DNA of 64,000 bases from an uncultured Anaerofilum sp. (GTDB taxonomy: Bacteria > Bacillota > Clostridia > Oscillospirales > Ruminococcaceae), in assembly GCA_944385935.1 (NCBI GenBank), contig CALWZC010000004.1, positions 75,426-139,425 on the forward strand, in the 5' to 3' direction. The position numbers were made by a program, and so were the translations under genes. Below, one piece after another: positions 2,413 to 41,915 of this stretch (the first letter of the stretch is position 1; the number at the start of each line of letters is the position of its first letter). A model generated the notes under the pieces. It made no database searches. It was not told the DNA's origin and saw only the letters and a program-made list of their open reading frames with translations.

Positions 2413-3951
2413 ATGACCAGTGAGCACATTATCATGAGTATCACAATTTTGGTTTACTTGGCAGGAATGTTATGGGTGGGGGTACTTTGCTCCAAACAGA
2501 ACAAAGATACCACAGATTTTTATTTAGGAGGAAGAAAGCTAGGGCCTTTGGTAACTGCTATGAGTGCAGAGGCCTCAGATATGAGTTCTTGGCTGCTAAT
2601 GGGATTGCCGGGATTGGCCTACCTAACAGGGGTGGCAGATGCTGGATGGACTGCCATTGGTCTTGCCATTGGAACCTATATCAACTGGTTCCTGGTGGCA
2701 AAACGGTTGCGGGTGTATACGCATATTGCAGGAAATGCCATCACCTTGCCGGATTTTTTCCACAACCGCTATCGGGATAAAAGCCGGTTGTTGATGTTGT
2801 TTTCCAGCTTAATGATAGTGTTGTTTTTTATTCCATACACAGCTTCAGGGTTTGCTGCTTGTGGCAAGTTGTTTTCTTCTCTATTTGGTGTGGACTACAC
2901 AACAGCTATGGTGGTTAGTGCCATAGTAATTGTGGGATACACAGCAACAGGTGGTTTTTTGGCAGCCTCCACCACCGATTTTATTCAGTCCTTAGTGATG
3001 TCGGTAGCCTTAGTTTTGGTGTTGCTGTTTGGAGTACACACAGCAGGGGGATGGTCTGTTGTAATGGAACGTGCAGCACAACTTCCCGGTTATTTGGGAA
3101 TGTTCCAAACCCATCAGCCAGAAACAGGCACCGCTGTGGCATATCCCGCTTTGAGTATGTTTTCTACCATTGCATGGGGACTAGGATATTTTGGAATGCC
3201 TCACATTTTATTGCGGTTTATGGCCATTGAGGACAAAGAAAAACTAACATTGTCCCGCCGCATTGCGACCATCTGGGTGGTAATTTCCTTGGCAGTGGGT
3301 GTGACCATTGGCATTGTGGGCATGGCTATGACAAAAACAGGTGTGTTGCCTGTGTTACAAGGAGCCTCTAGCGAAACAATTTTGGTGGTAATTGCGGATT
3401 TAATGAGTAAAAATGGATGGTTACTGGCGATTTTTGCAGGACTAATTTTAGCTGGAATCCTTGCCTCTACCATGTCCACAGCAGATTCTCAGCTATTGGC
3501 AGCCTCTAGTTCTGTTTCGCAAAACCTTTTGCAAGGAGTATTTCAGGTTCCCATCAACAAAAAAGCAGAAATGCTTTGTGCAAGAGGAACTTTAATTGCT
3601 ATTGCATTGTTGGGAATGTGGATTGCAAAAGACCCCAATAGCTCTATTTTTGGTATCGTTTCTTTTGCGTGGGCTGGTTTTGGTGCTTGTTTTGGCCCTG
3701 TCGTTATTATGGCTCTATTTTGGAAACGTTCCAACCGATGGGGGGCTTTGGCAGGAATGCTGGTGGGAGGAACTATGGTATTTGTGTGGAAATACCTTGT
3801 AATACCTTTGGGAGGTTTTTGGAATATTTATGAGCTTCTGCCGGCCTTTGTAGCTGCTTGCGTGGCTATCGTAGTAGTAAGCCTGTTGACAGCTCCACCG
3901 GAGAAAGAAATCTGCGTGGAATTTGACAAAGTTTGCAAAGAATGCCGCTGA
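2413..3951 (+). CDS. putP: sodium:solute symporter family, sodium/proline symporter
   Basis: 512 aa, 12-13 TM helices, SSF family sequence pattern; AGGGGGAA RBS before ATG. Confidence 0.8.
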   Translation: MTSEHIIMSITILVYLAGMLWVGVLCSKQNKDTTDFYLGGRKLGPLVTAMSAEASDMSSWLLMGLPGLAYLTGVADAGWTAIGLAIGTYINWFLVAKRLRVYTHIAGNAITLPDFFHNRYRDKSRLLMLFSSLMIVLFFIPYTASGFAACGKLFSSLFGVDYTTAMVVSAIVIVGYTATGGFLAASTTDFIQSLVMSVALVLVLLFGVHTAGGWSVVMERAAQLPGYLGMFQTHQPETGTAVAYPALSMFSTIAWGLGYFGMPHILLRFMAIEDKEKLTLSRRIATIWVVISLAVGVTIGIVGMAMTKTGVLPVLQGASSETILVVIADLMSKNGWLLAIFAGLILAGILASTMSTADSQLLAASSSVSQNLLQGVFQVPINKKAEMLCARGTLIAIALLGMWIAKDPNSSIFGIVSFAWAGFGACFGPVVIMALFWKRSNRWGALAGMLVGGTMVFVWKYLVIPLGGFWNIYELLPAFVAACVAIVVVSLLTAPPEKEICVEFDKVCKECR

Positions 3952-3960
3952 AAAGTGCCA

Positions 3961-4010
3961 AAAAACTCTGGATTTTGAGCTAAATTGACATCAAAGTCCA
4001 GAGTTTTTTG
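3961..4010 (+). terminator. rho-independent terminator after putP
   Basis: inverted repeat AACTCTGGA...TCCAGAGTT followed by TTTTGTT. Confidence 0.6.
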
Positions 4011-4150
4011 TTGAATTTTTCATGAATAAATTATTAAATTTTACAAAAAATGGTACAAAATATTCCAAAAACACCAAAAATATACATGCAAAATGATATT
4101 TTTCTCACAAATAAAGGGGCAATTTGCGGGTTTGCGTGGAATTTCGTGTA

Positions 4151-4180
4151 TTGAAGGCACAGTGGAATCTATCGTATAAT
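4151..4180 (+). promoter_or_regulatory. sigma-70-like promoter (-35 TTGAAG, 18-nt spacer, -10 TATAAT)
   Basis: TTGAAG 4151-4156 and TATAAT 4175-4180 read directly; upstream of small ORF and Spo0A-like RR. Confidence 0.45.
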
Positions 4181-4308
4181 GATGATGTTCCGAAATGCAA
4201 AGGAATAGTAAAAACTACACTACACCATGCAAGGTTGTATTTGTGGAAAAAGATGGATTTGCCTGCATGATGTAGAGATACTGTGTAAGAGTGGGCGGAG
4301 GATTTTTT

Positions 4309-4584
4309 ATGGAAACAAATTGCACTTTGATGTTGGAGAAAAGCTTTTCTCAGTTGGGCAAACTGCAAGACGAAATGCAGTTGCAGTACGCCATGAGTGT
4401 GCAACCCAATGGTGTAGAGTTTTGCGTTAGAAAAATACAAAACCACAACCAACAGTGGGAAAATAGCATGGTGGATGGATTGTCTTCAGAACAAGGAGAA
4501 CTGATTATAAACTTTATGCACCAAAATGCAGTTCCCTTTGAAAACTGGAGAGATATTCTGGAAGATTTGTTGTGCATTGTATAA
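4309..4584 (+). CDS. hypothetical small protein (91 aa), weakly Spo0E-reminiscent
   Basis: ATG 4309 preceded by GGAGG at 7-nt spacing; no confident family; segment SSEQGELIINF faintly resembles the Spo0E SQELDxLINEY motif. Confidence 0.35.
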   Translation: METNCTLMLEKSFSQLGKLQDEMQLQYAMSVQPNGVEFCVRKIQNHNQQWENSMVDGLSSEQGELIINFMHQNAVPFENWRDILEDLLCIV

Positions 4585-4725
4585 GGCAGCGGACCGGACT
4601 TTGAAAAAGGGCAACAGTAATATGTTTTGTCAGCAAGGGCTGCCCGTTTGGGTGGCTCTTTTTGCGTAGTAGCTCTTATGGGGCTGCTGGTGTAAAATGC
4701 CCATAGTAAAGGAGAGTAGAGTTTC

Positions 4726-5505
4726 ATGGCACAGGGCATTCGGGTACTTTTGGTGGAAGATAATTTGAATTTGGCAACTTTACAAGCACAAATGCTGAAA
4801 CTTCAACCCGAAAATTATCAGGTGCAGATAGCCTATACAGGGCAACAGGCAAAAGCTGCCTTGCAAGACTCTCTGCCAGATATTATTTTACTGGATTTAA
4901 CATTGCCTGCGCCAGATGGTCTTTCAATTTTGCGTTGGATGCAAACTCAGAAAAAGCCCATGCCACCAGTGATTGTCACTACCAGTTGCACCGAGGAAAG
5001 TGTTCAATGGGAGGCGTTGCGGCTGGGAGCAAAATATTTTATGATTAAGCCTTATCATTTGGATGATTTGTTAGGAAATATCCGAATGTTGCTACGAAAA
5101 CCTGCCAATGGATTTTTTGAATCTGGTATTCATCCAGAGAAAGTAGAATATCTACACCGTGTCAAAATGCTATTAAACCAGATGACCAGCCAAGTGGAAA
5201 GTGAAGGTTATCGCTATGTGTTGATGGCTATGGATAATTATTTTGACCATGGCAGACAGGGAATTTCCATCAAGGCATTAAGTGAAAAGGCAGGGCAACC
5301 TATAAACAACACCGGTGGAAATAATCTTATTGAGGCGGCAATTTATCGTTTGGTCTATCAAATTTGGAGAAAAAACTCTCCTGCATACCAACAGCTTTGC
5401 AGTTTTTGTGGATTGCCCAACGGAAGCCGAATGCCTGTCCGAAGATTTTTGTCTGCACTGGCACAGGTGGCACAAAGAGAACACACTTTGCCAAAGGAGA
5501 GGTAA
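4726..5505 (+). CDS. spo0A: response regulator with Spo0A-like C-terminal effector domain
   Basis: AAAGGAGAG RBS; receiver motifs LLVEDN, IILLDLTLP (phospho-Asp), VIVTTS, YFMIKPYHLDDLLGNIR; C-terminal part alignable to the Spo0A DNA-binding domain. Confidence 0.6.
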   Translation: MAQGIRVLLVEDNLNLATLQAQMLKLQPENYQVQIAYTGQQAKAALQDSLPDIILLDLTLPAPDGLSILRWMQTQKKPMPPVIVTTSCTEESVQWEALRLGAKYFMIKPYHLDDLLGNIRMLLRKPANGFFESGIHPEKVEYLHRVKMLLNQMTSQVESEGYRYVLMAMDNYFDHGRQGISIKALSEKAGQPINNTGGNNLIEAAIYRLVYQIWRKNSPAYQQLCSFCGLPNGSRMPVRRFLSALAQVAQREHTLPKER

Positions 5506-5506
5506 A

Positions 5507-6301
5507 ATGAAGGCTGAGCAAAACAAAGAATTGTACCATCAAATGAAAATGGTGACTGCTGTTGCCTATGACCTGCGAGACCCTGCAACGGTAATTTTAA
5601 TGGCCAAAGATGCTCTGGAAAAGTTGGTCATTGCCCAGCTGCCAGAGAAGGATCAAAAAAAGGCACAGGGGCCTTTGCGATATATCGAAAAAAGTGTAAA
5701 CCGATTGGAAAGAATCAGCATGAATCTGTTGGATATTTCCCGCAGTTCCACAGGAGAACTAAAACCCCACTGGGAGTCGGTTTGTATTTCAGCAGCATGT
5801 AAAGAACTATGTGAAGAAGCCAGAGCTATGCGCCAAGGGAAAAATATTGTTTGCAGTGTTCCAAAACATCCTGTTGTTATACAAACAGATTGCTATTTTT
5901 TTGACCGCATTTTACTAAATCTCCTTAGCAATGCTATGACAGCTTGTCCAGAGGGCAAAATTTGGGTGGAATTGAAGGAATACTCCAATGAAGTGGTTTT
6001 AGTGGTAAAGGACAGCGGGCCGGGCTTGGATGCCCACCGCTTGCAAAGCCCTTTTGCACCAGTCTACCGCACCGAGGATTCTTCCATGCGTTTGGGGCTG
6101 TATATTTCAGATTTGTTGGCAAAGCAAATGTACGCAACCCTTAGCGCAGAAAATATGCCTAAAGGTGGAGCAAGGTTTGTGTTACGTATTCCTGTGGAAG
6201 AGCAAGGTGGACAACAAGCCTTTTGTGCTCCTGTTCGACAGGAACAACAAACCCGAAAGCGATATGTTGAAGCAGAGTTTTCTCTATTTGACCCAATGTA
6301 A
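5507..6301 (+). CDS. histidine-kinase-like protein (HisKA+HATPase_c) with Tyr at phospho-acceptor position
   Basis: ATG 5507 immediately after RR stop (TAA 5503-5505); N-box LLNLLSNAM, G1 DSGPGLD, G2 LGLYIS present; H-box reads AYDLRDPAT (TAT at 5567-5569) versus KinA-type AHEIRNPLT; no TM segments. Confidence 0.65.
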   Translation: MKAEQNKELYHQMKMVTAVAYDLRDPATVILMAKDALEKLVIAQLPEKDQKKAQGPLRYIEKSVNRLERISMNLLDISRSSTGELKPHWESVCISAACKELCEEARAMRQGKNIVCSVPKHPVVIQTDCYFFDRILLNLLSNAMTACPEGKIWVELKEYSNEVVLVVKDSGPGLDAHRLQSPFAPVYRTEDSSMRLGLYISDLLAKQMYATLSAENMPKGGARFVLRIPVEEQGGQQAFCAPVRQEQQTRKRYVEAEFSLFDPM

Positions 6302-6476
6302 GGGTAAAGTCAGCAAAATATATCTTTTTCAAAAAGCCTTTGCCAGTAGTTTTGGTACAAGGGCTTTTTGCGGTTGTCGTAATTCCTGCATACAGTACCT
6401 TGTAAAACCATCAGGATTGTAGTATACTAAAACAGTATAGTCCAAATACACACAGGAATTTTATGAGGTATACAGA

Positions 6477-7859
6477 TTGAACCGGATTGATTTTACACAC
6501 AATACACAAGCGGCAGAGGTAATTGCTGCCCATTACGACAGCCCACCTTTGGCCTTTGTCCATTCTTATGGCTGTCAGCAAAATGTAAACGATGGAGAAA
6601 AAATCAAAGGTGTGCTGGTGGATGCTGGTTACGGCCTTTGTGACAAGTTTGAGGATGCAGACCTGATTTTGTTTAATACCTGCGCTGTGCGAGAGCATGC
6701 TGAGGAGCGTGTTTTTGGCAATGTGGGAGCACTCAAACAGCTAAAAGCTAAAAATCCCCGTCTGATTATTGGCATTTGTGGTTGCATGACCCAACAAGAA
6801 GGCGTGGTAGAGCGTTTGCGCAAAAGCTACCCCTTTGTAGATTTGGTCTTTGGGGTAAATGGCATTGACACACTGCCCCAACTGTTGGCGGAGAAAATGG
6901 GGGCAGGAAAGCGACTGCTAAAAACCCCAACCCAGCGATATGATGTGGTAGAGCAGATTCCCATTCAACGAGATTCTACCTTCCGAGCATGGTTGCCTAT
7001 CATGTATGGATGTGACAACTTTTGCTCTTACTGTATTGTTCCCTATGTACGAGGCAGAGAGCGCAGCCGGAAGAGCCAAGATATTTTGGCAGAGTTTCGC
7101 CAGCTGATAGAGCAGGGATACAAGGAAATTACCCTTTTGGGGCAAAATGTAAACTCTTACGGAAAAGGATTGGAGGAAACAATAGACTTTGCCGACCTGC
7201 TGGAGCAGCTCTGCCAGCAACCGGGGGATTACCATATCCGCTTTATGACCAGCCATCCTAAGGATGCTACCAAAAAGCTCATTGACACTATGGCAAAATA
7301 TCCCCAGCTTTGCAATCATCTGCATTTGCCAGTGCAAAGCGGCAGCAACCGAATCCTAAAGGAAATGAACCGCCACTATACTGTGGAGCAGTATATGGAG
7401 CTAATCAACTATGCAAAGGAGAAAATTCCTGGCATTACCTTCTCCAGTGATATTATTGTAGGATTTCCCGGGGAAACGGAAGAGGAATTTGAACAAACAC
7501 TAGACCTTATTTCCAAAGTGGAATATATGCAGTTGTTTACCTTCATTTATTCCAAAAGAACCGGAACCCGTGCCGCAGAAATGCCCGACCCCTTTACCCA
7601 CAAAGATAAAACCAACCGAATGGCAAGACTGTTGAAAACACAGGAGGAGATTGCCAGCCGTTTGGCAAAGGGAATGATAGGCAAGCAATGCCGTGTGCTG
7701 GTGGAGGGACATTCCCGACAACCGGGTACCCTTGCAGGTAGATTGGATAACAATCTTGTAGTGGAATTTGCAGGGGATGCTGCTCTCATTGGTAGCTATA
7801 CTACTGTAAACATTGAAGATGCTCGTGTAACCATGCTGAAAGGCAGCTTGCAAGCTTGA
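6477..7859 (+). CDS. miaB: tRNA-i6A37 methylthiotransferase MiaB (radical SAM)
   Basis: TTG start after GAGG; MTTase N domain, radical SAM CxxxCxxC (GCDNFCSYCIVPYVRG), TRAM C-terminus. Confidence 0.9.
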   Translation: MNRIDFTHNTQAAEVIAAHYDSPPLAFVHSYGCQQNVNDGEKIKGVLVDAGYGLCDKFEDADLILFNTCAVREHAEERVFGNVGALKQLKAKNPRLIIGICGCMTQQEGVVERLRKSYPFVDLVFGVNGIDTLPQLLAEKMGAGKRLLKTPTQRYDVVEQIPIQRDSTFRAWLPIMYGCDNFCSYCIVPYVRGRERSRKSQDILAEFRQLIEQGYKEITLLGQNVNSYGKGLEETIDFADLLEQLCQQPGDYHIRFMTSHPKDATKKLIDTMAKYPQLCNHLHLPVQSGSNRILKEMNRHYTVEQYMELINYAKEKIPGITFSSDIIVGFPGETEEEFEQTLDLISKVEYMQLFTFIYSKRTGTRAAEMPDPFTHKDKTNRMARLLKTQEEIASRLAKGMIGKQCRVLVEGHSRQPGTLAGRLDNNLVVEFAGDAALIGSYTTVNIEDARVTMLKGSLQA

Positions 7860-7966
7860 TAAATTGGATTTTGCTGGTACAAATTTGTACTTTCAAAATA
7901 AATACTTTTCCGCTTTTAAAAAACGGAAAGAATCCCTTCAAATAAAAGCAAAAGGAGATATACAAA

Positions 7967-8374
7967 ATGGATTGCATTGAACTGTTTAAAAAAGCCGCTG
8001 CCGCTATGCAGGCAGACCCTCGCTGTGTAGCTTTGAACACCACACAAAAAGCCTGCGACGAAGATGAAACCTTGCAGGATTTAATTGGTCAGTTTAACCT
8101 TGCTCGTATCGACATGAACGAGGAAGTGGGCAAACCAGAGCGCAACAACCAGCGCATTGCTGAGCTCAACGAGAAGGTTGGCAAAATCTACAACGAAATT
8201 ATGGAAAATCCCAAAATGGTAGCATACAACGAAGCTAAAAAAGAGGTTGAAGGTATGATTAACCATATCAATGCCATTGTAAACACCGCTGTAGAGGGTG
8301 GCGACCCCATGCTGGTGGAGCAACCTGCTGAGGCTTGCACTGGAAGCTGCTCCAGTTGCAGCGGATGCCATTAA
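7967..8374 (+). CDS. YlbF/YmcA-family regulatory protein with Cys-rich C-terminal tail
   Basis: AAAAGGAG RBS; helical YlbF-like architecture; unusual tail ACTGSCSSCSGCH. Confidence 0.5.
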   Translation: MDCIELFKKAAAAMQADPRCVALNTTQKACDEDETLQDLIGQFNLARIDMNEEVGKPERNNQRIAELNEKVGKIYNEIMENPKMVAYNEAKKEVEGMINHINAIVNTAVEGGDPMLVEQPAEACTGSCSSCSGCH

Positions 8375-8395
8375 AAGCAACCAGCAAGCCCATTG

Positions 8396-8435
8396 CACAC
8401 CGACCGGCACCATTTCCGGTCGGTGTGCCTTTTTG
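8396..8435 (+). terminator. rho-independent terminator
   Basis: CACACCGACCGG...CCGGTCGGTGTG 12-bp stem then CCTTTTTG. Confidence 0.8.
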
Positions 8436-8526
8436 CAAGATTGGGTTTGTGCTGTGGAATACCCGAAGGATAAACCCAATTTTACAAGGATACTGTTGAA
8501 GATGATATACAAGGAGGCGACTTTCA

Positions 8527-11124
8527 GTGGCAAAACTGTCCCCTATGATGCAACAATATTTCCAGTTGAAGGAAGATTATAAAGACGAAATTCTGTTCTT
8601 TCGCTTGGGCGATTTTTATGAAATGTTTTATGATGATGCTCTTTTAGCGTCTAAAGAGTTGGAACTCACCCTCACAGGAAGGGACTGCGGACAAGAGGAG
8701 CGTGCCCCTATGTGTGGGGTGCCCTTTCATAGCAGCGAAAGCTATATTGCCCGACTGATTGCAAAAGGGTATAAAGTTGCCATCTGTGAACAGGTGGAAG
8801 ACCCTGCCTCTGCAAAAGGACTGGTAAAACGGGATGTCATTCGTGTGGTTACTCCCGGCACAGTCATTGAAAGTAGCATGCTGCCAGAAGACCGCAACAA
8901 TTACATTGCCAGCATTGCGGTACAAAAGGGAAGGGCTGGAATCTGCTTTGCAGATGTTTCCACAGGAGAAGCACAAGTTACCCTGTTGGAAGGAGAAAAC
9001 TTGGCAGACCAGATTCTTTCGGAACTATGCCGCTTTTCTCCCAGTGAGGTGTTAATGAATCCCACTTTACTGGACTATAAACAGGTAACAGATTACATAA
9101 AAAATAAACTTTCCTGTTCTGTGGAAATGATGGAAGAAAAAGACTATAAACCCACTGTGGTGGATGCTGTTATGCAGAGGCAGTTTGGCAAGGAATATGC
9201 CACACAGTTGGATATGGATAGCAGCGACTTAGAATGTTCCGCTTTGGCGGTGCTGTTGGAATATATTCTCCATACCCAGAAAAAAGGCTTGGAGCGAATG
9301 AAAACCGTTCACCGCTATGCAGAAAAGCAATTTATGCACCTTTCTCCCACAACACGCAACAATTTGGAATTGACCCAAACCATGCGAGGCAAGGAGAAAA
9401 AAGGAACCTTGCTGTGGGTGCTGGACAAAACAGCCACTCCTATGGGTAGGCGACTTCTGCGGAAATGGGTAGAACAACCACTGGTTTCTGCGGTGGCTAT
9501 CAACCATCGGTTGGAAGCAGTGGAACAACTGGTACAGGATACTGTAGGGCGTGGAGATATTTTTCAGGTATTGGATTGTATCTTTGATATGGAAAGGTTG
9601 ACCACTCGCACGGTATATGGTTCTGCAAGCCCCAAAGAGGTATATGCTTTGTCCGTCGCCTGTCAACAAATGCCCCAACTAAAGCAATTTGCAGCCAAAT
9701 ACACAGGGCAGGAATTGCAGCAAATCAGCAAGGACATTGACCCCCTAGAAGATATTTGCCAATGTATTCGGGATGCACTGGAAGAAACAGCCCCTGCCAC
9801 TCTAAAGGATGGCAATGTAATTCGGGCAGGATACAACGCTGAAGTGGACGAGCTGCGAGAAATTATGCACGGGGGCAAGGGATATCTTGCTACATTGGAA
9901 GCAAAGCTAAAAGAAGAAACAGGCATCCGTACCCTAAAGGTGGGCTATAATCGGGTATTTGGCTATTATATCGAGGTAAGCCGCAGTTTTTCCAGTCAAG
10001 TTCCCGAAACCTTTATCCGAAAACAAACCCTTGCCAATGCAGAGCGATACATCACCGACGAGCTAAAACAACTGGAATCCAAGATTTTGGGTGCCAGCGA
10101 GCGACTGTTGAACTTGGAAAAGGAATTGTTTGACCAGCTTTTACAAAAGATTGCTCAGCAGCTTGTACGGATTCAGCAAACCGCCACAGCCGTGGCAAAA
10201 CTGGATGTTCTGTGCTCTTTGGCGCAAGTGGCAGTGGAAAACAACTATACTCGTCCCATTGTGGAGGAAAACAATCTATTGAATATCCAGCAGGGGCGGC
10301 ATCCTGTCATTGAAAAAATTATGACAGGAGGGCTGTTTGTTCCCAATGATACGGTGATGGATTGCGATAGAAACCGGATGTTAATGATTACCGGCCCCAA
10401 TATGGCGGGAAAATCCACCTATATGCGGCAAAATGCCCTAATTGTGCTGATGGCACAGATTGGCAGCTTTGTTCCTGCACAGCATTGCAGAGTGGGAGTA
10501 GTAGACGCAATTTTCACCCGTGTAGGTGCCGCTGATGATTTGGCGGCAGGTCAATCTACATTTATGGTAGAAATGAACGAGGTTGCCGAAATTTTGCAGC
10601 ATGCAACCCATAAAAGTTTGGTGATTTTGGACGAAATTGGCAGAGGTACTTCTACCTTTGATGGTATGAGCATTGCCCGTGCTGTGGTGGAATACATTGC
10701 AGACAAAACAGGGCATTTGGGTTGTAAGACCCTATTTGCTACCCATTACCATGAGTTGACCGAAATGGAACATACCACAGATGGCGTGAAAAACTATTCC
10801 ATTGCTGTAAAAAAGAGGGGAGATGACATCACATTCCTGCGCAGAATTATTGCAGGCCCCGCAGATGATAGCTATGGAATCCAAGTGGCAAAATTGGCAG
10901 GTTTACCAGAAGCAGTGATTGACCGTGCAAAAGAAGTGTTGCAACAGTTGGAAACCTCTATGCCCAGCCCAGACAAAGCAATTCAGATGGATTGGAGCCA
11001 GATGGAAGAAAAGCCACAAGAATTGCCCCAACAAATGGTGGAAAAACTGCAAAAGGTGGACTTGGAAACCGTAACACCTTTGGAAGCCTTAAACCTCCTA
11101 TACCAACTCAAACAAATGGTGTAA
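8527..11124 (+). CDS. mutS: DNA mismatch repair protein MutS
   Basis: GTG start after AAGGAGG; MutS domains I-V, Walker A GPNMAGKST, TFMVEMNE. Confidence 0.95.
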   Translation: MAKLSPMMQQYFQLKEDYKDEILFFRLGDFYEMFYDDALLASKELELTLTGRDCGQEERAPMCGVPFHSSESYIARLIAKGYKVAICEQVEDPASAKGLVKRDVIRVVTPGTVIESSMLPEDRNNYIASIAVQKGRAGICFADVSTGEAQVTLLEGENLADQILSELCRFSPSEVLMNPTLLDYKQVTDYIKNKLSCSVEMMEEKDYKPTVVDAVMQRQFGKEYATQLDMDSSDLECSALAVLLEYILHTQKKGLERMKTVHRYAEKQFMHLSPTTRNNLELTQTMRGKEKKGTLLWVLDKTATPMGRRLLRKWVEQPLVSAVAINHRLEAVEQLVQDTVGRGDIFQVLDCIFDMERLTTRTVYGSASPKEVYALSVACQQMPQLKQFAAKYTGQELQQISKDIDPLEDICQCIRDALEETAPATLKDGNVIRAGYNAEVDELREIMHGGKGYLATLEAKLKEETGIRTLKVGYNRVFGYYIEVSRSFSSQVPETFIRKQTLANAERYITDELKQLESKILGASERLLNLEKELFDQLLQKIAQQLVRIQQTATAVAKLDVLCSLAQVAVENNYTRPIVEENNLLNIQQGRHPVIEKIMTGGLFVPNDTVMDCDRNRMLMITGPNMAGKSTYMRQNALIVLMAQIGSFVPAQHCRVGVVDAIFTRVGAADDLAAGQSTFMVEMNEVAEILQHATHKSLVILDEIGRGTSTFDGMSIARAVVEYIADKTGHLGCKTLFATHYHELTEMEHTTDGVKNYSIAVKKRGDDITFLRRIIAGPADDSYGIQVAKLAGLPEAVIDRAKEVLQQLETSMPSPDKAIQMDWSQMEEKPQELPQQMVEKLQKVDLETVTPLEALNLLYQLKQMV

Positions 11125-11163
11125 GGATAGGTATTCCATAGAACGAGAAAAGGAGGAGATTGC

Positions 11164-13140
11164 ATGGCAGTCATTCATGTATTGGACAAGCATACCGCCG
11201 AATTGATTGCGGCAGGGGAGGTAGTGGAGCGTCCGGCATCGGTAGTAAAGGAATTGCTGGAAAATTCCATTGATGCTGGAGCCAAACAGATAACAGTTTC
11301 CATTGTCCGTGGTGGTGTGGCGCAAATTGAAGTGTCTGACAATGGAAGTGGTATTGAAGTAGAGTATATTGCCACCGCTTTTATTCGCCATGCTACTAGT
11401 AAAATCTCCTGCCAACAAGATTTGGAATCCATTGGAACCTTGGGATTCCGTGGAGAAGCTCTAGCCTCCATTGCCAGCGTTGCCCGAATACAGCTTGTCA
11501 CCTGCACCCCTCAAGATGAGTTTGCTTACTGCTACCGCATAGAGGGAGGCGAGGAAATAGGCATAGAGCCGGCGGCCCGTCCAGTGGGAACAACTATCAC
11601 TGTTTCGGACTTGTTTTACAATACTCCAGCCCGCATGAAGTTTTTGAAAAAGGATTCTAGTGAAGGAACCTTTGTGGCAGAAACCATACAAAGGATTGCT
11701 CTTTCTCATCCAGAAGTAAGCATTGCTTTTATTCGTGAGGGAAAGCAGCAATTTCGTACCCCCGGCACAGGAAAGTTGATGGATACTATTTACACTGTGC
11801 TAGGTAGGGAATTTTCAAAGGAATTGCTGTCTGTAGAAAGCCAGAGTGGAGCCTATCAGGTAAAAGGATGGATTACCCCGCCTCGTTGCTGTCGTGCCAG
11901 TCGAGCAATGCAATATTTCTATATCAATGGGCGTTTTGTAAAAAATAAAACCATGATGGCAGCCCTAGAAACGGCCTACAAGGGAACAGTTATGCAAGGG
12001 AAATTTCCCGGGTGTGTGTTGGAATTGCAGTTGCCCCCGGAATTGGTGGATGTAAATGTGCATCCAGCAAAAATTGAGGTGCGCTTTGCTCATGAACAGG
12101 ATGTTTTTGATGCTGTGTACAAAGGAGTAAAATTGGCTTTGTCGGTGCCACAAGCCTCCCAAAAGCAGTTGGAGTTTTCTACAAAGCCACAGCCAGAGCA
12201 TAAACAAATGCAAATGCCTTCCATTTCTGTGCCACCACAAACCTCTGTAATTCCCAAGCAGGAAACAATCATTTTGGCAAAACAGCAACCTACACTATCA
12301 CAAATTACACCAAACGTTTCTACAAAAGAGGAAATACGGCAAGAAAAATATGTGATTACCACGCGAAATCCAAAAGCATTTTCTGGGCTGTGTTCTTCCA
12401 GTTTGCCCTATACTGTGCACCACAAAGAACCAGACCTTGATGTTATGGTAGAGGAAGATGATTCTTTTCCTGTTGTGGAGCAGCCAGCAGCAGAAACAGA
12501 ATTACCTACCCAAGAGGAAGTAGTACCTTCTCAGATGGAACTGGTTTCCCAAGAGGAGGAGAACAAAGGTTCAGCCCCTTTGCAAATTGTAGGGGAGATG
12601 TTTGGAACCTATATCCTTGCCCAGCGAGGACAGGAAATGTGCTTTATTGATAAACATGCAGCCCATGAGCGTATTTTGTATGAAAAGTTAAAGAATCAGC
12701 AAATGGCAGATGGACAGCTGTTGATGGAGCCTGTAAGCGTGCAGCTTTCCGCAGAACAAAAAAATGCTGTGCTGCAACAGGCGGATTTGCTGGAACAGCA
12801 AGGAATCCAGTTGGAGGACTTTGGTGGGTCTACGGTGTTGGTGCGAACGGTTCCTTTGGATATTTCCCCCAGTGAAGTGGAACCTTTGGTTGAGGAATTG
12901 GCATCCAACTTGGTGCTAAACAATCGCCAAAGCCGAACAGAAAAAGCGGAATGGGTGTTGCATTCCATTGCTTGCCGTGCTGCGGTAAAAGCTGGTGACC
13001 ACAACAGCACAGAAGAACTGTTGCACTTGGCACAACAAATTTTAGAGGGGGAAATTCCCCTATTCTGTCCCCATGGCAGACCGGTGATTTTAAAATTGAC
13101 ACAAAAGGAGCTGGAAAAACAGTTTGGTAGACAAGGATAA
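11164..13140 (+). CDS. mutL: DNA mismatch repair protein MutL
   Basis: GHKL ATPase N-terminus (ELLENSIDAGA), long linker, MutL C-terminal dimerization domain. Confidence 0.95.
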   Translation: MAVIHVLDKHTAELIAAGEVVERPASVVKELLENSIDAGAKQITVSIVRGGVAQIEVSDNGSGIEVEYIATAFIRHATSKISCQQDLESIGTLGFRGEALASIASVARIQLVTCTPQDEFAYCYRIEGGEEIGIEPAARPVGTTITVSDLFYNTPARMKFLKKDSSEGTFVAETIQRIALSHPEVSIAFIREGKQQFRTPGTGKLMDTIYTVLGREFSKELLSVESQSGAYQVKGWITPPRCCRASRAMQYFYINGRFVKNKTMMAALETAYKGTVMQGKFPGCVLELQLPPELVDVNVHPAKIEVRFAHEQDVFDAVYKGVKLALSVPQASQKQLEFSTKPQPEHKQMQMPSISVPPQTSVIPKQETIILAKQQPTLSQITPNVSTKEEIRQEKYVITTRNPKAFSGLCSSSLPYTVHHKEPDLDVMVEEDDSFPVVEQPAAETELPTQEEVVPSQMELVSQEEENKGSAPLQIVGEMFGTYILAQRGQEMCFIDKHAAHERILYEKLKNQQMADGQLLMEPVSVQLSAEQKNAVLQQADLLEQQGIQLEDFGGSTVLVRTVPLDISPSEVEPLVEELASNLVLNNRQSRTEKAEWVLHSIACRAAVKAGDHNSTEELLHLAQQILEGEIPLFCPHGRPVILKLTQKELEKQFGRQG

Positions 13141-32882: not shown

Positions 32883-33206
32883 ATGAGTAATGAAACAAAT
32901 GTTTTGTTACAGTCGGTGTTGGAAATGGACCGGCAAGAACGGCTACGCACACAGGAGGCGGAGGACTACCGTGGAAAGGCCATGGCTCAGCTGGAGGACA
33001 GCCGTAAGGACATTCACCAAAAACACCAGCAGTTGGCACAGCAAAAAATAGAAGCATATACCCAACAGGAAAATGAACGTATGCAACAAACCTTGCAGAC
33101 CTTACAACAAAAAAGTGCAGCAGTAAAGCAAACACTAAACGCCACAAAGTCTGCCAAACAGGAACAATGGGTAGAAACAATTTTTGAGCGTGTTTTGGAA
33201 AGGTGA
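32883..33206 (+). CDS. V/A-type ATPase small coiled-coil stalk subunit (G/H-like)
   Basis: 108 aa, entirely helical, charged and Q-rich; first gene of the V-ATPase operon. Confidence 0.55.
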   Translation: MSNETNVLLQSVLEMDRQERLRTQEAEDYRGKAMAQLEDSRKDIHQKHQQLAQQKIEAYTQQENERMQQTLQTLQQKSAAVKQTLNATKSAKQEQWVETIFERVLER

Positions 33207-33214
33207 GGCGTTTT

Positions 33215-34273
33215 ATGGCAATTCCTTCCTTTGGTTCAAATGCAGTGTTGGCAAAGTGCCGTGCAATGTATGGCAAAAGCCTGACTGCTCGCAATTATAC
33301 AGAGTTGCTTGCCTGCCATACTGTGCCGGAAGTAGCAGCTTACTTGAAAACAAAAACCCATTATGCTTCTTGTTTGTCGGGGGTTACTCCTCAAGTAATT
33401 CACCGTGAACAGTTGGAAATTTTATTAAAGCGGTATCTGTTTGGACAATATGCTGCCCTTAGTCGATATGAAATTAGCTTAGGGCAGGATTTTTATTCCT
33501 ATTTTGTGGTAAAAAGCGAACTGGAAATGGTTTTAGCACAACTGCATAAAATCAATGCACAGGAACATATCCCTGTTATGGGCGCAGAGCCTGATTTTGT
33601 AAAAAAGTTTTCTCAGCTAAATGAAAGCAAAATTTCCTCTGCAAATAATCTCATGCAGTTGGCACACGCTTTGGATGGCACTCCCTATGGCAAAATTATT
33701 CATTCCTTTGTGGAAAAAACAACTTTTGATTTGCAAAGAGATGGCACATTGGAAATTGAAGCAGCCTTGATGGACTACGAGTATAGTGTCATGGAGGAGC
33801 TTTCCCAGAAACATCTAAAAGGAAAACAGTTGCAAGAAGTACTGGAAATTTTGAAACGTCAAAGCGATGTACAGGCAATTATCAATATGTTCCGTATGAA
33901 GAAGATGTTGCAATCTCCCAGTATGTATGTACGGCGCAGAGTTTCCATGCAACACACACAGCTTTCTTCTCAAAAAATCAATCAGCTTTTGGATGCGGAA
34001 AATGAGGAAGATTTTGTACGGGTGCTAAAAACTACCAGCTATGGAAAAGAACTGGCAAAGGTGGCATACGACTATATTGAAGAGGGAATGCAAAAGGTGC
34101 AGTACCATTTTCATTTAAAAAAATTCCGTTTTTCCACCAATCCCAGTGCAGTTATGCTGTGCTATTTGTTTTTGGCAGAAAATGAATTGACCAATGTTAC
34201 CCACATTATAGAGGGCATTCGATATGGAATGTCGCCAGAAGAAATTGAACGTCTTTTGGTAGGAATCCAGTGA
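33215..34273 (+). CDS. ntpC: V/A-type ATPase subunit C (V0 d)
   Basis: 352 aa helical protein, N-terminal pattern resembles NtpC/AtpC; operon context. Confidence 0.7.
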   Translation: MAIPSFGSNAVLAKCRAMYGKSLTARNYTELLACHTVPEVAAYLKTKTHYASCLSGVTPQVIHREQLEILLKRYLFGQYAALSRYEISLGQDFYSYFVVKSELEMVLAQLHKINAQEHIPVMGAEPDFVKKFSQLNESKISSANNLMQLAHALDGTPYGKIIHSFVEKTTFDLQRDGTLEIEAALMDYEYSVMEELSQKHLKGKQLQEVLEILKRQSDVQAIINMFRMKKMLQSPSMYVRRRVSMQHTQLSSQKINQLLDAENEEDFVRVLKTTSYGKELAKVAYDYIEEGMQKVQYHFHLKKFRFSTNPSAVMLCYLFLAENELTNVTHIIEGIRYGMSPEEIERLLVGIQ

Positions 34274-34290
34274 GGAAGGAGAGGTAAACC

Positions 34291-35253
34291 GTGTTTTTTG
34301 ATGAAAAAATACAGTTGGTATGGGTGGATGGCTCGGTGCAGCTTTTGGAAAGTTTTGTACAGAAGTGTTGCATGGGGGATGAACGTGTACATCCTACCAC
34401 AGCCAGCGATAAAATGAGCGCAGGCATGGGCTTTGCCCCCCCAGAAATAGAAAATAATTGGGCGCAGCGCATTGAGGAAATGGAACAGATGGCCCAAGGG
34501 CTGGAACTTCCAGTGGTAGAGCCTGCTTTTGAGGATGCTCGTTCTCCCAAATTGGATGGATATTTGCAGCGAGTCAAAACCGCTTTGGATGAGAAACGGA
34601 ATATTCTGAAAGATTTGGAGGCACAACAGGTTTTGTGTCAGCAGGGCATAGAGCAATTTTCCCATTTTGAAGAACTGGATGTGGATTTGAGCAAAGCTCT
34701 TGAATGTGAATACATTTCCATCCGTTTTGGAAAACTGCCCAAAGCTGGGTTTGAAACTCTGTTGAGGGAACACGGCGATGACCCTTATGTGTTCTTTATT
34801 CGGTGCAGCGAAGACAAGGATTTTTACTGGGGAATGTATTTTGCTCCCCGTGAAAAACGAGCTTTGGTAGATGGTATCTTTGCAGGCTTGTACTTTGAAC
34901 GAGTACGGTTGCCCGGTGCAGGGGGAACCCCAAAAGAAATTGTAGAAAATCTTCAACACAATGTAGAGATTTTGCGCAGCCAAATTTTGCAAGCACAAGA
35001 CCAACTACAACAGGTATGGGGAGCAGAAAAATGGCGTTGCGCTGGTATTTATGCCTCTTTTTGCAGTTTGGCCCGTGTAGCAGAGTTGTGCAAGTGTGCT
35101 GCTGTGCGGGGAGAGCATTTCTTCTATGCAGTATGGGTGGAACAAACTGCTATGGAAGCCTTTGTATCTCGCTGCGAATCTGTGGGCAAACTGCATATGG
35201 CAATGGATATGACCCTTCCCAGAAAGAAATGGAAACAGCTCCATCAGCAATAA
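34291..35253 (+). CDS. stand-alone paralog of the soluble N-terminal domain of V-ATPase subunit I
   Basis: GTG start after AGGAGAGG; 320 aa, no TM; alignable along its length to residues 1-330 of the downstream subunit I (shared IQLVWVDG/MKLVRVDG, DDPYVFF, YWG.YF.P, LYFER). Confidence 0.6.
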   Translation: MFFDEKIQLVWVDGSVQLLESFVQKCCMGDERVHPTTASDKMSAGMGFAPPEIENNWAQRIEEMEQMAQGLELPVVEPAFEDARSPKLDGYLQRVKTALDEKRNILKDLEAQQVLCQQGIEQFSHFEELDVDLSKALECEYISIRFGKLPKAGFETLLREHGDDPYVFFIRCSEDKDFYWGMYFAPREKRALVDGIFAGLYFERVRLPGAGGTPKEIVENLQHNVEILRSQILQAQDQLQQVWGAEKWRCAGIYASFCSLARVAELCKCAAVRGEHFFYAVWVEQTAMEAFVSRCESVGKLHMAMDMTLPRKKWKQLHQQ

Positions 35254-35294
35254 CGGCGGCTTATACCGCATGAGAAAGGACGATGAACTGATTC

Positions 35295-37226
35295 GTGGCC
35301 ATTGAAAAAATGAAGCTCGTCCGAGTGGATGGGCTGCTCAGTCAGTTGGATGATTTTATCCTGCGATGTTGCATTAATGGTGATTTTCAACCTGAACCTG
35401 CTATCCAGTATATGTCTGCTTCCAGTAAAAACATGTCCTTGGTGGAGGAAAACCCCTATCCACCTATGGTGCAGGCAGTAGAAGAATTGTTTGCTCTGGC
35501 AGAATATACCCCCCAAGAGGATAATAAAACCGAAAAAGAACGTACCATAGACCCCAAAGCCTTGGAAGCAGTGCAAACTGTAAAAGAAGAGTTGAAAGTT
35601 TTACAGCAACAGCAAAAAACACAACAGCGAGAACTGGCACAGCTTCAAGAGCGCAGCAACCAATATTCCCACTTTGAGTCGTTGGAAACTCCCCTAGAGG
35701 AACTGGAGGCGACAAAGTATATCAATATCCGTTTTGGATTTTTGCCGGGAGAGAGCTATCAAAAAATGCAGACCAGTTATGCAGATGACCCTTATGTATT
35801 TTTTGTGCCTTGCAGTCAGGAAAATGGCGGATATTGGGGATTATACTTTACCCCTCATCGGGTAGCAGATGAGATTGATGGCATTTTTTCCATGCTGTAC
35901 TTTGAGAGAATTTCTTTGGAAAACGATACTGGTACAGTAAAAGAAATTATGCAAAAGCTGCAAACACAAATCGACCAGTTGCAGCAAGAACTGGACAAAA
36001 CCAATGCAGCCATACAAAAGTTGTGGGAAGAAAATAAAGAATATTGCATTGGTGTGTACAGCCAGTTGAAATGGTTAGACCAAGTGTTTGAACTGCGGCA
36101 TTATGCAGCTTATCGGGATAACTATTTCTTCTATGTGGGATGGATTCCTGAAAGAGCTGTGCCAGAGTTTAGCAAGCAGGTAAAATCTCTGCGCAATATG
36201 AAAATTACCGTTACCGACCCCAGCAAACAGGACAAAATTGCTCCGCCGGTAAAGTTAAGGAACCTTTTACCCTTCCGGCCCTTTGAGATGTTTGTTGGAA
36301 TGTATGGCCTTCCCAGTTATGGAGAAATGGACATCACCGAATTTGTTGCCATTACATTTACTTTATTGTTTGGCATTATGTTTGGTGATATGGGACAGGG
36401 AGCTGTGCTTGCCATTGGTGCCTTTATCCTGTATAAGTGGAAGGGTATTGCTTTGGCGAAACTGGTTATTCCTTGTGGAATTTCTTCCATGTTCTTTGGG
36501 TTCATTTTCGGTTCGGTATTTGGATTTGAACATTTGCTAGACCCGGTATACCACGCCTTAGGCTGGAAAGGAAAGCCACTGGAAGTAATGGAATCCATCA
36601 ACACAGTGCTATTGGTTGCCATTGGTATTGGTGTTTCCTTGGTAATTGCTTCTATGTTGCTAAATGTTGTCGCTTCTGCACGAAAAGGACATTGGGGAGA
36701 GGCTATCTTCTCCAACAATGGTTTGGTAGGATTGGCAGTGTATATTTCTGGTGTAAACCTAGTAAGTGGATTTATGGGCGGCCCCAGCCCCATCCCTGCG
36801 CAAGTGGGACAATTCCTCATTGGTGCTGGTCTGGTTTTGCTGTTCTTTAAAGAGGTGCTGGTAGGTAAATTTGACGGGCACCCCGACTGGAAACCAGAAA
36901 GCTGGAGCGACTATGCTATGCAGAACTTGTTTGAACTACTGGAATATGTGCTTTCTTATTTTTCAAACACTGTTTCCTTCTTGCGTGTAGGTGCTTTCGT
37001 AATTGTCCATGCTGCTATGATGATGGTGGTATTTAGTCTGGCAGGAGACCCTGCAAACCCTGTGGTTGTGGTATTGGGCAATGCTTTGGTAATCTGTTTG
37101 GAAGGTTTGCTGTCTGGTATTCAGGGATTGCGTTTGGAATTCTATGAAATGTTTAGCCGCTGCTATGAGGGCGGTGGACGTCCTTTCCGGGGAGTTCGTC
37201 TTGCACCGGAAAAACAAAAGCACTAA
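35295..37226 (+). CDS. ntpI: V/A-type ATPase subunit I (a)
   Basis: 643 aa; N-terminal soluble domain plus C-terminal multi-TM domain; start MAIEKMKLV (GTG). Confidence 0.85.
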   Translation: MAIEKMKLVRVDGLLSQLDDFILRCCINGDFQPEPAIQYMSASSKNMSLVEENPYPPMVQAVEELFALAEYTPQEDNKTEKERTIDPKALEAVQTVKEELKVLQQQQKTQQRELAQLQERSNQYSHFESLETPLEELEATKYINIRFGFLPGESYQKMQTSYADDPYVFFVPCSQENGGYWGLYFTPHRVADEIDGIFSMLYFERISLENDTGTVKEIMQKLQTQIDQLQQELDKTNAAIQKLWEENKEYCIGVYSQLKWLDQVFELRHYAAYRDNYFFYVGWIPERAVPEFSKQVKSLRNMKITVTDPSKQDKIAPPVKLRNLLPFRPFEMFVGMYGLPSYGEMDITEFVAITFTLLFGIMFGDMGQGAVLAIGAFILYKWKGIALAKLVIPCGISSMFFGFIFGSVFGFEHLLDPVYHALGWKGKPLEVMESINTVLLVAIGIGVSLVIASMLLNVVASARKGHWGEAIFSNNGLVGLAVYISGVNLVSGFMGGPSPIPAQVGQFLIGAGLVLLFFKEVLVGKFDGHPDWKPESWSDYAMQNLFELLEYVLSYFSNTVSFLRVGAFVIVHAAMMMVVFSLAGDPANPVVVVLGNALVICLEGLLSGIQGLRLEFYEMFSRCYEGGGRPFRGVRLAPEKQKH

Positions 37227-37320
37227 GTGCTACTAAATGTTTGCCATGTTTCGCACATTGTGCGATATGGAAAGTGAAAATCACTTTTATAAAATCTTTT
37301 ATCATTTGGAGGAAGAATCT

Positions 37321-37773
37321 ATGAATACTCTGTTTCAACTGTTGTTTGCACTGGCTCCCGTAGCCATTTTGATGGGAGCAACCGCTCTGATTGCTCGCAA
37401 GGTAAGCGCAGGCAAAATTAGTGTGAAGAAGTCCTTTGGTATGAACTTGGCTGTCTTTGGTGTGATTATGGTAGTAGGCTGCATGATGGCTATGACTGTA
37501 TTTGCTGCTGATGGTGCCGCTGCAATGACCGCCGCAGAGCGTGCAGCAAGCAACCAGAGCATGGGTCTGGGTCTGTTGGCTGCTGCATTGGTAACCGGTT
37601 TGGCAGGTATCGGCGGTGGTATCGCTGTTGCCGCAGGTGCTCCTGCTGCTATCGCAGCTGCAAGCGAAGACCCCAAGAGCTTTGGTAAGTCCTTGATTTT
37701 CGTTGCTTTGGGCGAGTCTATTGCATTGTATGGTGTTGTTATCTCCATCTTGATTCTGAACAAGTTGGTATAA
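37321..37773 (+). CDS. ntpK: V/A-type ATPase proteolipid subunit K (c)
   Basis: Start MNTLFQLL after GGAGG; 150 aa, 4 TM, Gly/Ala-rich. Confidence 0.85.
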   Translation: MNTLFQLLFALAPVAILMGATALIARKVSAGKISVKKSFGMNLAVFGVIMVVGCMMAMTVFAADGAAAMTAAERAASNQSMGLGLLAAALVTGLAGIGGGIAVAAGAPAAIAAASEDPKSFGKSLIFVALGESIALYGVVISILILNKLV

Positions 37774-37795
37774 GCCGGAAGGAAGGCGAAATCCA

Positions 37796-38104
37796 ATGCG
37801 TTTTTATCTAATCAGTGATAATGTAGATACATTGGTGGGCATGCGTTTGGCAGGCATTGAGGGAGTAGTAGCCCACGAAGATGCCGAGGTACAGCAAGCT
37901 CTGGATGAGGTGCTGAAAGCCGATGATATCGGCATGATTTTGGTTACTGAAAAGTTGATGCGCCAATTTGGTGAGCATTTTGACCAAGTGCGCCAAACCA
38001 TGACAAAGCCCCTAATTGTGGAAATTCCCGACCGGCATGGTGCCGTAAACGGAAAAGACCGCATTACCAAATATGTGCGTGATGCCATTGGCGTCAAGAT
38101 TTGA
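37796..38104 (+). CDS. ntpF: V/A-type ATPase subunit F
   Basis: 102 aa; MRFYLISDNVDTLVGMRLAGIEG typical of subunit F. Confidence 0.8.
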   Translation: MRFYLISDNVDTLVGMRLAGIEGVVAHEDAEVQQALDEVLKADDIGMILVTEKLMRQFGEHFDQVRQTMTKPLIVEIPDRHGAVNGKDRITKYVRDAIGVKI

Positions 38105-38114
38105 GGTGTAAAGG

Positions 38115-38708
38115 ATGATTCAGCAACAAGAGCGTGCAGAAAAGTTTTTTCGGGCAATTCGCAGAGATGCTGAACGGCGGCGTAAGCAGATTATCAGCCA
38201 AATTGATGAATATATCGCCGCAGAAACCGAAAAAATAGAGCAGGCGGAATTGCAATCTGCCAATGAACGGGTACAATATGAAACCCAACGTATACAATCC
38301 CAAACCAACAGCCAGTTGGCAAAGGAAACCACCGAAATCAGTGCAGAGTTGGCTGCCTACCGTAGCGCAATTACCAAAGAGGTATTTGAACAAGTGGCAC
38401 AGAAGCTGGCAGTATTTGTGAAAAGCCAACAGTATCAGCAATGGTTGTCTGATGGATTGGGCCAAATGGAAAAACTTCTTGGTGCGGGGATGACAGTGTA
38501 TGCTGCCCCTGCTCAGGTGGAACAGGTAGAAAAAGCTGTTGCAATGGCAAAGGTAGACTGTACAGTCAAAGCAGACGAAAACATCCATTTGGGTGGTGTT
38601 CGTGCAGAAAAAGGCAGCAAAAAGGTGGATGACACACTGGACAGCCGCCTGAAAAGTCAAGAGGATTGGTTCTACCAGAACTCTGGTCTTTCCATTGCAA
38701 TTCAGTGA
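38115..38708 (+). CDS. ntpE: V/A-type ATPase subunit E
   Basis: 197 aa; long N-terminal helix, C-terminal globular domain; operon position. Confidence 0.75.
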   Translation: MIQQQERAEKFFRAIRRDAERRRKQIISQIDEYIAAETEKIEQAELQSANERVQYETQRIQSQTNSQLAKETTEISAELAAYRSAITKEVFEQVAQKLAVFVKSQQYQQWLSDGLGQMEKLLGAGMTVYAAPAQVEQVEKAVAMAKVDCTVKADENIHLGGVRAEKGSKKVDDTLDSRLKSQEDWFYQNSGLSIAIQ

Positions 38709-38723
38709 AACGAGGTGTAAGCG

Positions 38724-40502: not shown

Positions 40503-40505
40503 GGG

Positions 40506-41882: not shown

Positions 41883-41915
41883 TGCCTTTAGGCTGGGGCA
41901 AGGAGGGAAAGCAAC

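Follow-up and report, generated by a model that had tools for sequence, protein, structure and literature searches.

A kinase-like protein with tyrosine at the phospho-acceptor site, encoded beside a Spo0A-like regulator in an uncultured Anaerofilum

What does a histidine kinase do once its phospho-acceptor histidine is gone and the response regulator encoded beside it still carries an intact receiver? The question is raised by a three-gene module in a 64,000-nucleotide (nt) stretch of DNA from an uncultured Anaerofilum sp. (assembly GCA_944385935.1, contig CALWZC010000004.1, positions 75,426 to 139,425), hereafter the window. The module encodes a small conserved protein, a response regulator of Spo0A-like architecture and a histidine-kinase-like protein in which a Tyr, encoded by TAT, occupies the place of the acceptor His (Table 1). 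An earlier note, made from the letters of the sequence, had described this layout and a promoter ahead of the first gene, and had offered three options for the kinase-like protein: a pseudokinase acting on the regulator as phosphatase or anti-kinase, a very recent inactivation, or a base-call error. The three genes, their coordinates and the promoter were all reproduced in the present analysis, and so were the motifs of the intact ATP-binding domain and the replacement of the acceptor His by Tyr.

The acceptor site of the kinase-like protein

The kinase-like protein is built of a DHp-like region (residues ~8–85), a CA (ATP-binding) domain (~120–231) and a conserved C-terminal tail of 30 amino acids (aa). 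Pfam finds in it no sensor, PAS or membrane domain, and merely 20 residues precede the H-box. The HATPase_c domain is matched with an expectation value (E) of 1.6e-17, and the window protein carries an N-box (ILLNLLSNAM), a G1 box (DSGPGLD) and a G2-like box (RLGLYIS). Throughout the family, the ATP-binding residues N138, D169, G171, G173, F183 and L196-G197-L198 are invariant, and the G2 box reads x-[RK]-LGL, not GxGLGL. The tail extends ~30 residues past the CA domain, with Q237, Q248, R250 and A256-E257-F258 invariant, ends in AEFS and has no counterpart in ordinary kinases.

The full H-box stretch reads AVAYDLRDPAT. When AVAYDLRDP is aligned to the canonical SHELRSP, THEIRNP and SHDLRNP, Y21 lines up with the phospho-acceptor His. 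A HisKA profile search, proposed in the earlier note, gave a match spanning residues 14–82 that remains, at 21.9 bits, under the Pfam cut-off of 26.9. The His-bearing relative P0010 is matched just as weakly (22.0 bits), and through these sub-threshold matches Y21 of the window protein and H21 of P0010 fall at one profile position. The family alignment displays no second conserved His in the DHp region. An H-box elsewhere in the protein is excluded by the alignment to canonical kinases, by the HisKA profile and by the lack of any other conserved DHp His.

Around the acceptor site, Asp/Glu at +1, Arg at +3 and Asp/Glu at +4 are conserved. At His+4, the His-less clade has Asp and the His clade has Glu; Thr/Asn is never found there. 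As cited in PMC12963549, Thr/Asn at His+4 of the D/E-x-x-T/N motif defines the phosphatase activity of HisKA proteins; by that definition, the motif is incomplete in this family, which keeps the acidic +1 residue and lacks Thr/Asn at +4.

The Tyr codon is shared by two independent metagenome assemblies (L005 and L006, 98.9% and 99.4% identical to the window at the nucleotide level), and AVAYDLRD is read in all 14 protein variants that cover the site in a 90%-identity cluster gathered from dozens of NCBI, ENA and Logan contigs, which removes the base-call error from the options. Among more distant loci, Tyr is again encoded by TAT in L001 (77% identity), L007 (60%) and L002 (54%), and TAT is also found in L003. 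The site is occupied by Cys (TGC) in L008, by Gly (GGC) in L087 and by Lys (AAG) in L009, and three loci (L004, L088 and L089) have His (CAC or CAT), within a canonical-looking AHDLRE. The conservation of Tyr among orthologues, a check that had been suggested beforehand, thus holds for L001, L007 and L002 but not for the relatives with Cys, Gly or Lys, nor for the sister clade with His.

Eleven sequences were placed in a simple neighbour-joining tree with the distant L090 homologue as root; in it, the three His proteins are sister to a single clade comprising all His-less proteins. Since the sister clade keeps AHDLRE and the His-less proteins form one clade in this rooted tree, the simplest history is that the acceptor His was ancestral and was lost once, in the ancestor of this His-less, Anaerofilum-like clade, the site then drifting between Tyr, Cys, Gly and Lys.

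Between the window and L005/L006, the kinase-like gene displays 4 synonymous and 0 non-synonymous changes. The ratio of non-synonymous to synonymous substitution rates (dN/dS) amounts to 0.07 for the pair window–L001, to 0.13 for L002 (Tyr) and L008 (Cys), whose kinase-like proteins are 88% identical, and to 0.27 for L002 and L087 (Gly), values in the same range as the 0.09 obtained inside the His clade, with dS saturated in the deeper pairs. The open reading frame (ORF) is full-length in 12 of 12 loci. As dN/dS ranges from 0.07 to 0.27 and is alike with or without the His, we conclude that the His-less protein is an evolutionarily fixed pseudokinase kept by purifying selection, and not a pseudogene. 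The same selection, together with the persistence of Tyr in orthologues down to 54% identity, also disposes of a very recent inactivation.

The regulator and the small protein

The regulator possesses a receiver over residues ~1–125 (Response_reg, E = 7.6e-20 in Pfam) with a whole active site: E11, D12, D57 and K108 are the same throughout, and all orthologues have Thr or Ser at position 86. When the family profile was compared to the PDB, the four best matches were all Spo0A receivers (1dz3, 7e-26, against 7e-20 for the best receiver of another kind). The C-terminal domain comprises six helices over residues ~137–251. Note that a fold search with the two-domain model was swamped by receiver matches, and for this reason the C-terminal domain was modelled separately. 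Modelled alone, it again forms six helices with a predicted local distance difference test (pLDDT) of 84.7 and a predicted template modelling score (pTM) of 0.79. When it was compared by Foldseek to 350,000 PDB chains, the top seven matches of this model are all Spo0A C-domain chains, with template modelling (TM) scores of 0.55–0.76, and the first match outside Spo0A scores 0.26. On this model, the output domain is predicted to have the Spo0A effector-domain fold.

For the C-terminal domain, the assignment was decided by the fold comparison, several routes through the sequence having failed. With Spo0A_C (PF08769), the full protein reaches 13.0 bits and the C-terminal domain alone 15.2 bits, under a cut-off of 25, and this Pfam model touches just one of eight regulator family members. 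TIGR02875 reaches 80.3 bits against a threshold of 200, and its matched positions, 3–126, cover the receiver only. The family profile did not find the Spo0A C-domain in the PDB, and hhalign between the C-domain family and the B. subtilis domain, whose query sequence was verified as 1LQ1, was negative (probability 0.2). A C-domain profile searched over 1.84 billion representatives returned 7 proteins, three being family clusters and four weak matches, with no canonical Spo0A among the 7. Two of the weak matches, P0192 and P0194, as well as P0195, a cluster-mate of the match P0193, touch Spo0A_C at E = 0.003–0.017. The earlier note's assignment to Spo0A is therefore retained in part: the receiver is closest to those of Spo0A and the modelled C-terminal domain matches the Spo0A C-domain only, whereas the Spo0A_C match, on which the note itself had made the assignment depend, stays at 13–15 bits under the cut-off of 25.

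Sequence identity to Spo0A in the C-terminal domain amounts to 10–16%, and the sole alignable stretch is the recognition helix, SRVERAIRHAIEVAW in Spo0A and NLIEAAIYRLVYQIW in the regulator. The Glu and Trp of Spo0A are retained in this helix, and its three Arg are replaced by Leu, Ala and Tyr. In Spo0A, residues of this helix contact DNA and read the 0A-box, and the regulator probably has a DNA target different from that of Spo0A. It further differs from Spo0A by a longer turn in its helix-turn-helix, by the cognate kinase-like gene that adjoins it and by the lack of sporulation-gene neighbours, no sporulation gene being seen over ~50 kilobases (kb) of the window. As Spo0A_C remains below threshold and TIGR02875 is confined to the receiver, we regard the regulator as a divergent paralogue that has the Spo0A architecture, and not as Spo0A itself. 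Spo0A paralogues have been reported for some Clostridiales (10.1101/2022.02.25.481979).

Both proteins contain invariant cysteines: C93-x4-C98-x3-C102 at the start of the CA domain and C147 after the N-box in the pseudokinase, C88 and C225-x-x-C228 in the regulator, the first Cys of the latter motif being kept in the distant L090-type proteins. These cysteines might serve as a redox or metal input, or might just belong to a buried core.

The small protein is encoded by a genuine and conserved gene, the third partner in the operon: all 13 loci with sufficient flank have an orthologue immediately ahead of the regulator gene, with dN/dS values of 0.06–0.29. Note that a word-indexed homologue search with this protein recovered its own cluster only, and that its orthologues were taken from the neighbouring loci. 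Conserved motifs are FSxLG near the N-terminus, with an invariant Ser14, and YENAVP.E.W.D.L near the C-terminus. It has no sequence match in Pfam, NCBIfam or the PDB, and no STAS domain was detected. The earlier note had found it reminiscent of Spo0E by virtue of the string SSEQGELIINF. This string is present in the window, and one Gln alone of it is conserved among orthologues; the Spo0E family gave no match at E ≤ 1 in Pfam or NCBIfam and no Spo0E-like structure was retrieved from the PDB, so that a Spo0E-like protein is ruled out. Since the kinase-like protein lacks any sensor domain, the small protein is a candidate for its input or partner.

Operon, genomic setting and distant relatives

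The promoter-like site is the top-scoring one within 3900–6520, as judged by its match to the consensus only. Together with the three genes and the terminator-like hairpin that follows them, it looks like one operon (Table 1). A first hairpin, after the symporter gene, marks the 5′ boundary of the module; in Rfam it returned spurious miRNA hairpin models only. The second was not picked up by a simple terminator scan and appears in the RNA fold of 6300–6390, at −24.6 kcal/mol (z = −2.7 versus shuffled sequences); it is the probable 3′ end of the operon. Rfam provided no leader RNA or riboswitch for the cassette, and the only repeats upstream that could resemble operator motifs were short ones at chance level. 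In L001, the closest other species, the small gene and the regulator gene are separated by an additional ORF of 152 aa, for which Pfam gives no match.

Table 1. Positions of the module and of the other features discussed (window coordinates unless a locus is named)
Feature	Position	Strand	Remarks
Sodium:solute symporter gene	2413-3951		upstream of the module
Terminator-like hairpin	3959-4010	+	after the symporter gene; 20-nt arms, 95% complementary, then a T-run
Sigma-70-type promoter-like site	4151-4180	+	TTGAAG-18-TATAAT; 10/12 consensus matches
Small conserved protein gene, 91 aa	4309-4584	+	first gene of the putative operon; preceded by GGAGGA
Spacer, small gene to regulator gene	4585-4725		140 nt
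Response regulator gene, 259 aa	4726-5505	+	TAA stop at 5503-5505
C-terminal domain of the regulator	5134-5478		residues ~137-251
Histidine-kinase-like pseudokinase gene, 264 aa	5507-6301	+	ATG at 5507, one base past the regulator TAA
Acceptor-site codon, Tyr21	5567-5569	+	TAT; column of the canonical-kinase His
C-terminal tail of the pseudokinase	6203-6298		~30 residues
Terminator-like hairpin	6330-6372 (about)	+	followed by TTTTT; from the RNA fold of 6300-6390
miaB, YmcA-family gene, mutS, mutL	6477-13140		in this order
Com_YlbF/YmcA-family gene	7967-8374		between miaB and mutS
P-type ATPase gene, 885 aa	24642-27299		complete
ORF, 232 aa	27316-28014		directly follows the P-type ATPase gene
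ORF, 453 aa	30145-31506		no Pfam match at E ≤ 1e-5
V-type ATPase operon	33203-42542
ORF, 320 aa	34291-35253		within the V-type ATPase operon; no Pfam match at E ≤ 1e-5
Inserted ORF in L001, 152 aa	L001:4728-5186		between the small gene and the regulator gene
Divergent trio	L090:5713-7652; L091:2852-4791		93-aa protein, 268-aa regulator-like protein, 283-aa HATPase_c protein

The kinase-like family consists of about a dozen clusters among 5.8 billion proteins, the next relatives being generic kinases at ~30% identity. Among the loci listed in a scan of one genome per species, from which the window's own species is absent, the family is confined to metagenome-assembled genomes labelled Anaerofilum (Oscillospiraceae); on this basis the host is described as Anaerofilum-like. 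The trio is kept together in every locus, with its genes closely packed for translation, across two genomic settings. In the first (window, L001 and L005), the cassette is placed between the sodium:solute symporter gene and miaB-ricA-mutS-mutL; in the second (L002, L004 and L008), it stands directly upstream of pyrH-frr-uppS-cdsA-dxr, and L009, L088 and L089, whose flanks were partly read, appear to share this pyrH setting. In the window, guanine plus cytosine (GC) content is 42.6% in the cassette and 42–46% in its flanks, which gives no sign of recent horizontal transfer. Over all cassette loci it ranges from 38 to 64%, and a family spanning such a range must be old. The extremes are set by L001 and L007, at 38%, and by L002, L008, L088 and L090, at 61–64%; the Anaerofilum label probably covers several deeply diverged lineages.

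A divergent version of the trio is found at the P0195 locus (L090/L091), directly upstream of pyrH-frr-cdsA-dxr, where the cassette is also placed in L002 and L004. Its small protein is a clear homologue of the one in the window. In its regulator, the receiver no longer has the acidic pocket or the conserved Thr, and its kinase-like protein combines a non-canonical H-box with intact N, G1 and G2 boxes. The trio therefore predates the genus. That it persists with the chemistry of both sides eroded suggests that its core function does not depend on His-to-Asp transfer.

On the 3′ side of the module, the window carries a gene order that resembles the ymcB-ymcA-cotE-mutS-mutL region of B. subtilis, with no cotE-like gene between the YmcA-family gene and mutS. 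YmcA/RicA-type proteins influence the Spo0A phosphorelay in Bacillus. The adjacency of the cassette to this region looks like ordinary synteny. Elsewhere in the window, the 232-aa ORF behind the P-type ATPase gene aligns to Cation_ATPase_C over the C-terminal part of that model only and may be a duplicated or truncated fragment.

Mechanism and comparison with known systems

By analogy with DivL, we propose, with a probability of roughly 0.6, that the pseudokinase docks on the receiver of its regulator and controls it by binding. Because the acceptor residue is missing, autophosphorylation at the canonical site would not be possible, and the protein would have no role as phosphodonor to the regulator. 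Its DHp helices would dock on the regulator's receiver, and control would be exerted either by sequestering the regulator or by sensing whether it is phosphorylated. Both the small protein and the binding of nucleotide in the CA domain would modulate this control. Phosphorylation of the regulator, if any, would then come from another kinase or from a small-molecule donor. A residual phosphatase activity of the pseudokinase is possible but not favoured.

Several points weigh against this proposal or the history behind it. Separate losses of the His are possible, being compatible with a simple distance tree of 11 sequences. The intact receiver, the Asp/Glu at His+1 and the ATP site would be equally compatible with a phosphatase that works without the His. 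Finally, DivL recognizes the phosphorylated form of its partner and passes on its output through PAS domains, of which the window protein has none, so that the analogy is partial.

The alternative that survives best is that of a dedicated phosphatase: the His-less protein would bind the phosphorylated regulator and dephosphorylate it, as an off-switch either constitutive or stimulated by nucleotide. The conserved receiver site, the conserved neighbours in the H-box (Asp/Glu at +1, Arg at +3) and the conserved ATP motifs are what such an enzyme would need, and the Spo0A-repressing phosphotransfer protein PtpB of C. difficile does not require its conserved His (PMC11210211). Yet the residue at His+4, where the definition cited above places the Thr/Asn of the phosphatase activity, is Asp in the His-less proteins and Glu in the His clade, and L090-type receivers without an acidic pocket would offer nothing to dephosphorylate in a trio that nevertheless persists. 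We consider a dedicated phosphatase possible, if on balance unlikely.

A partner switch would account for the strict co-occurrence of a small protein, a transcription factor and a GHKL ATPase, for an ATP site kept without the acceptor His and for the invariant Ser14: the GHKL domain would sequester the transcription factor and phosphorylate the small protein, for instance on this Ser. SpoIIAB, which acts on sigma-F and SpoIIAA, provides the precedent. With no STAS or other detectable domain in the small protein, and a kinase-like protein of the DHp+CA type rather than of the SpoIIAB/RsbW type (HATPase_c_2 reaches just 14 bits), this explanation is improbable.

Of the replacements, Tyr is the most frequent, with four lineages, as would be expected if it served as an alternative phospho-acceptor in a Tyr autokinase. 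However, Cys and Gly stand at this position in proteins that share 88% and 75% identity with a Tyr-bearing orthologue, Lys is found in another lineage, all of them are under purifying selection, and in DivL the Tyr is not required as an acceptor (PMC4211667). With Cys, Gly and Lys taking its place in close relatives, Tyr is very unlikely to be a substitute acceptor.

The loss of an essential catalytic residue and a DHp region under the Pfam HisKA threshold are also what a decaying relic of a two-component system would display, an idea that is scarcely tenable given dN/dS values of 0.07–0.27 as in the His clade, an intact ORF in 12 of 12 loci and invariant catalytic motifs. That TAT is one transition from CAT gives a sequencing or assembly error, or a very recent inactivation of a normal kinase, practically no weight against TAT in independent assemblies, in 14 of 14 variants and in orthologues at 77%, 60% and 54% identity.

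Going beyond control by binding, one may speculate that the trio as a whole has become a phosphotransfer-independent switch, made from a Spo0A-type regulator and its kinase, in which the DHp+CA protein would gate a Spo0A-fold factor through nucleotide-dependent binding and the small protein would carry the signal. We put this forward tentatively and regard it as rather doubtful. If true, the lineages at hand would show the stages of the loss, from His kept, through His lost, to receiver pocket and H-box lost, and would represent a natural series of a two-component system turning into a partner-binding module.

Bacterial histidine pseudokinases have been studied in very few cases (DivL, PsmA), with partners encoded elsewhere. 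Three elements are new here. A minimal pseudokinase without any sensor shares an operon with the intact regulator that belongs to it and with a small protein as the third member; the output domain, of predicted Spo0A fold, is invisible to standard profiles; and His-bearing, His-less and doubly degenerate versions occur in related organisms. In the window, the regulator beside the pseudokinase is apparently still phosphorylatable; sisters that keep the His and deeper relatives without a receiver pocket offer an evolutionary comparison of what becomes of a kinase fold after phosphate transfer stops. Isolates of Anaerofilum, Faecalibacterium and Gemmiger are reported to lack spore-protein genes and to keep other genes required for sporulation (PMC6069880). 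Among the papers searched, none mentions Anaerofilum together with spo0A. Regulators with a putative Spo0A fold in a gut lineage reported without spore-protein genes bear on the roles of Spo0A-type proteins outside sporulation. The practical reach of the finding is limited: the family is confined to a poorly studied group.

Among known systems, the closest in kind is DivL of Caulobacter crescentus, which has Tyr at the His site and all kinase boxes kept, is without kinase or phosphatase activity, and uses its regulator-docking face to bind DivK~P (PMC4211667). The window protein resembles it in the replacement of the acceptor His by Tyr with the other kinase boxes retained, and in the occasional presence of other residues at this site, Ala in the DivL of Magnetospirillum and Cys, Gly or Lys in the present family. 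Homology between the two is limited to the generic kinase core. DivL is a membrane-anchored, alphaproteobacterial protein with multiple PAS domains, in contrast to a bare DHp+CA protein of 264 aa from Clostridia. Its partner DivK is a single-domain protein encoded elsewhere, whereas the partner in the window is an adjacent regulator of the DNA-binding type, accompanied by the small protein. The residue at His+4 is Thr (T557) in DivL and Asp in the window protein.

In PsmA of Streptomyces, different species have E, D, Q, V or Y at the His site, next to conserved neighbours (PMC12963549). The present family shares with PsmA this variable site, the conserved neighbours and the incomplete D/E-x-x-T/N motif, but PsmA, a large hybrid protein, also contains PAS and receiver domains and binds DivIVA at hyphal tips, and lineage, context and partner are unrelated. 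Clostridial orphan kinases and phosphotransfer proteins acting on Spo0A, such as PtpA/PtpB/PtpC of C. difficile, offer another parallel, as proteins of kinase fold that repress, rather than activate, a Spo0A-type regulator, PtpB repressing sporulation independently of its His (PMC11210211). They differ from the window protein in that they keep the His, carry sensor or membrane domains, act on genuine Spo0A and are not co-transcribed with their target. By class, the window protein is a bacterial histidine pseudokinase. It lacks PAS domains, and its lineage and partner differ from those of DivL and PsmA, which places it outside both families.

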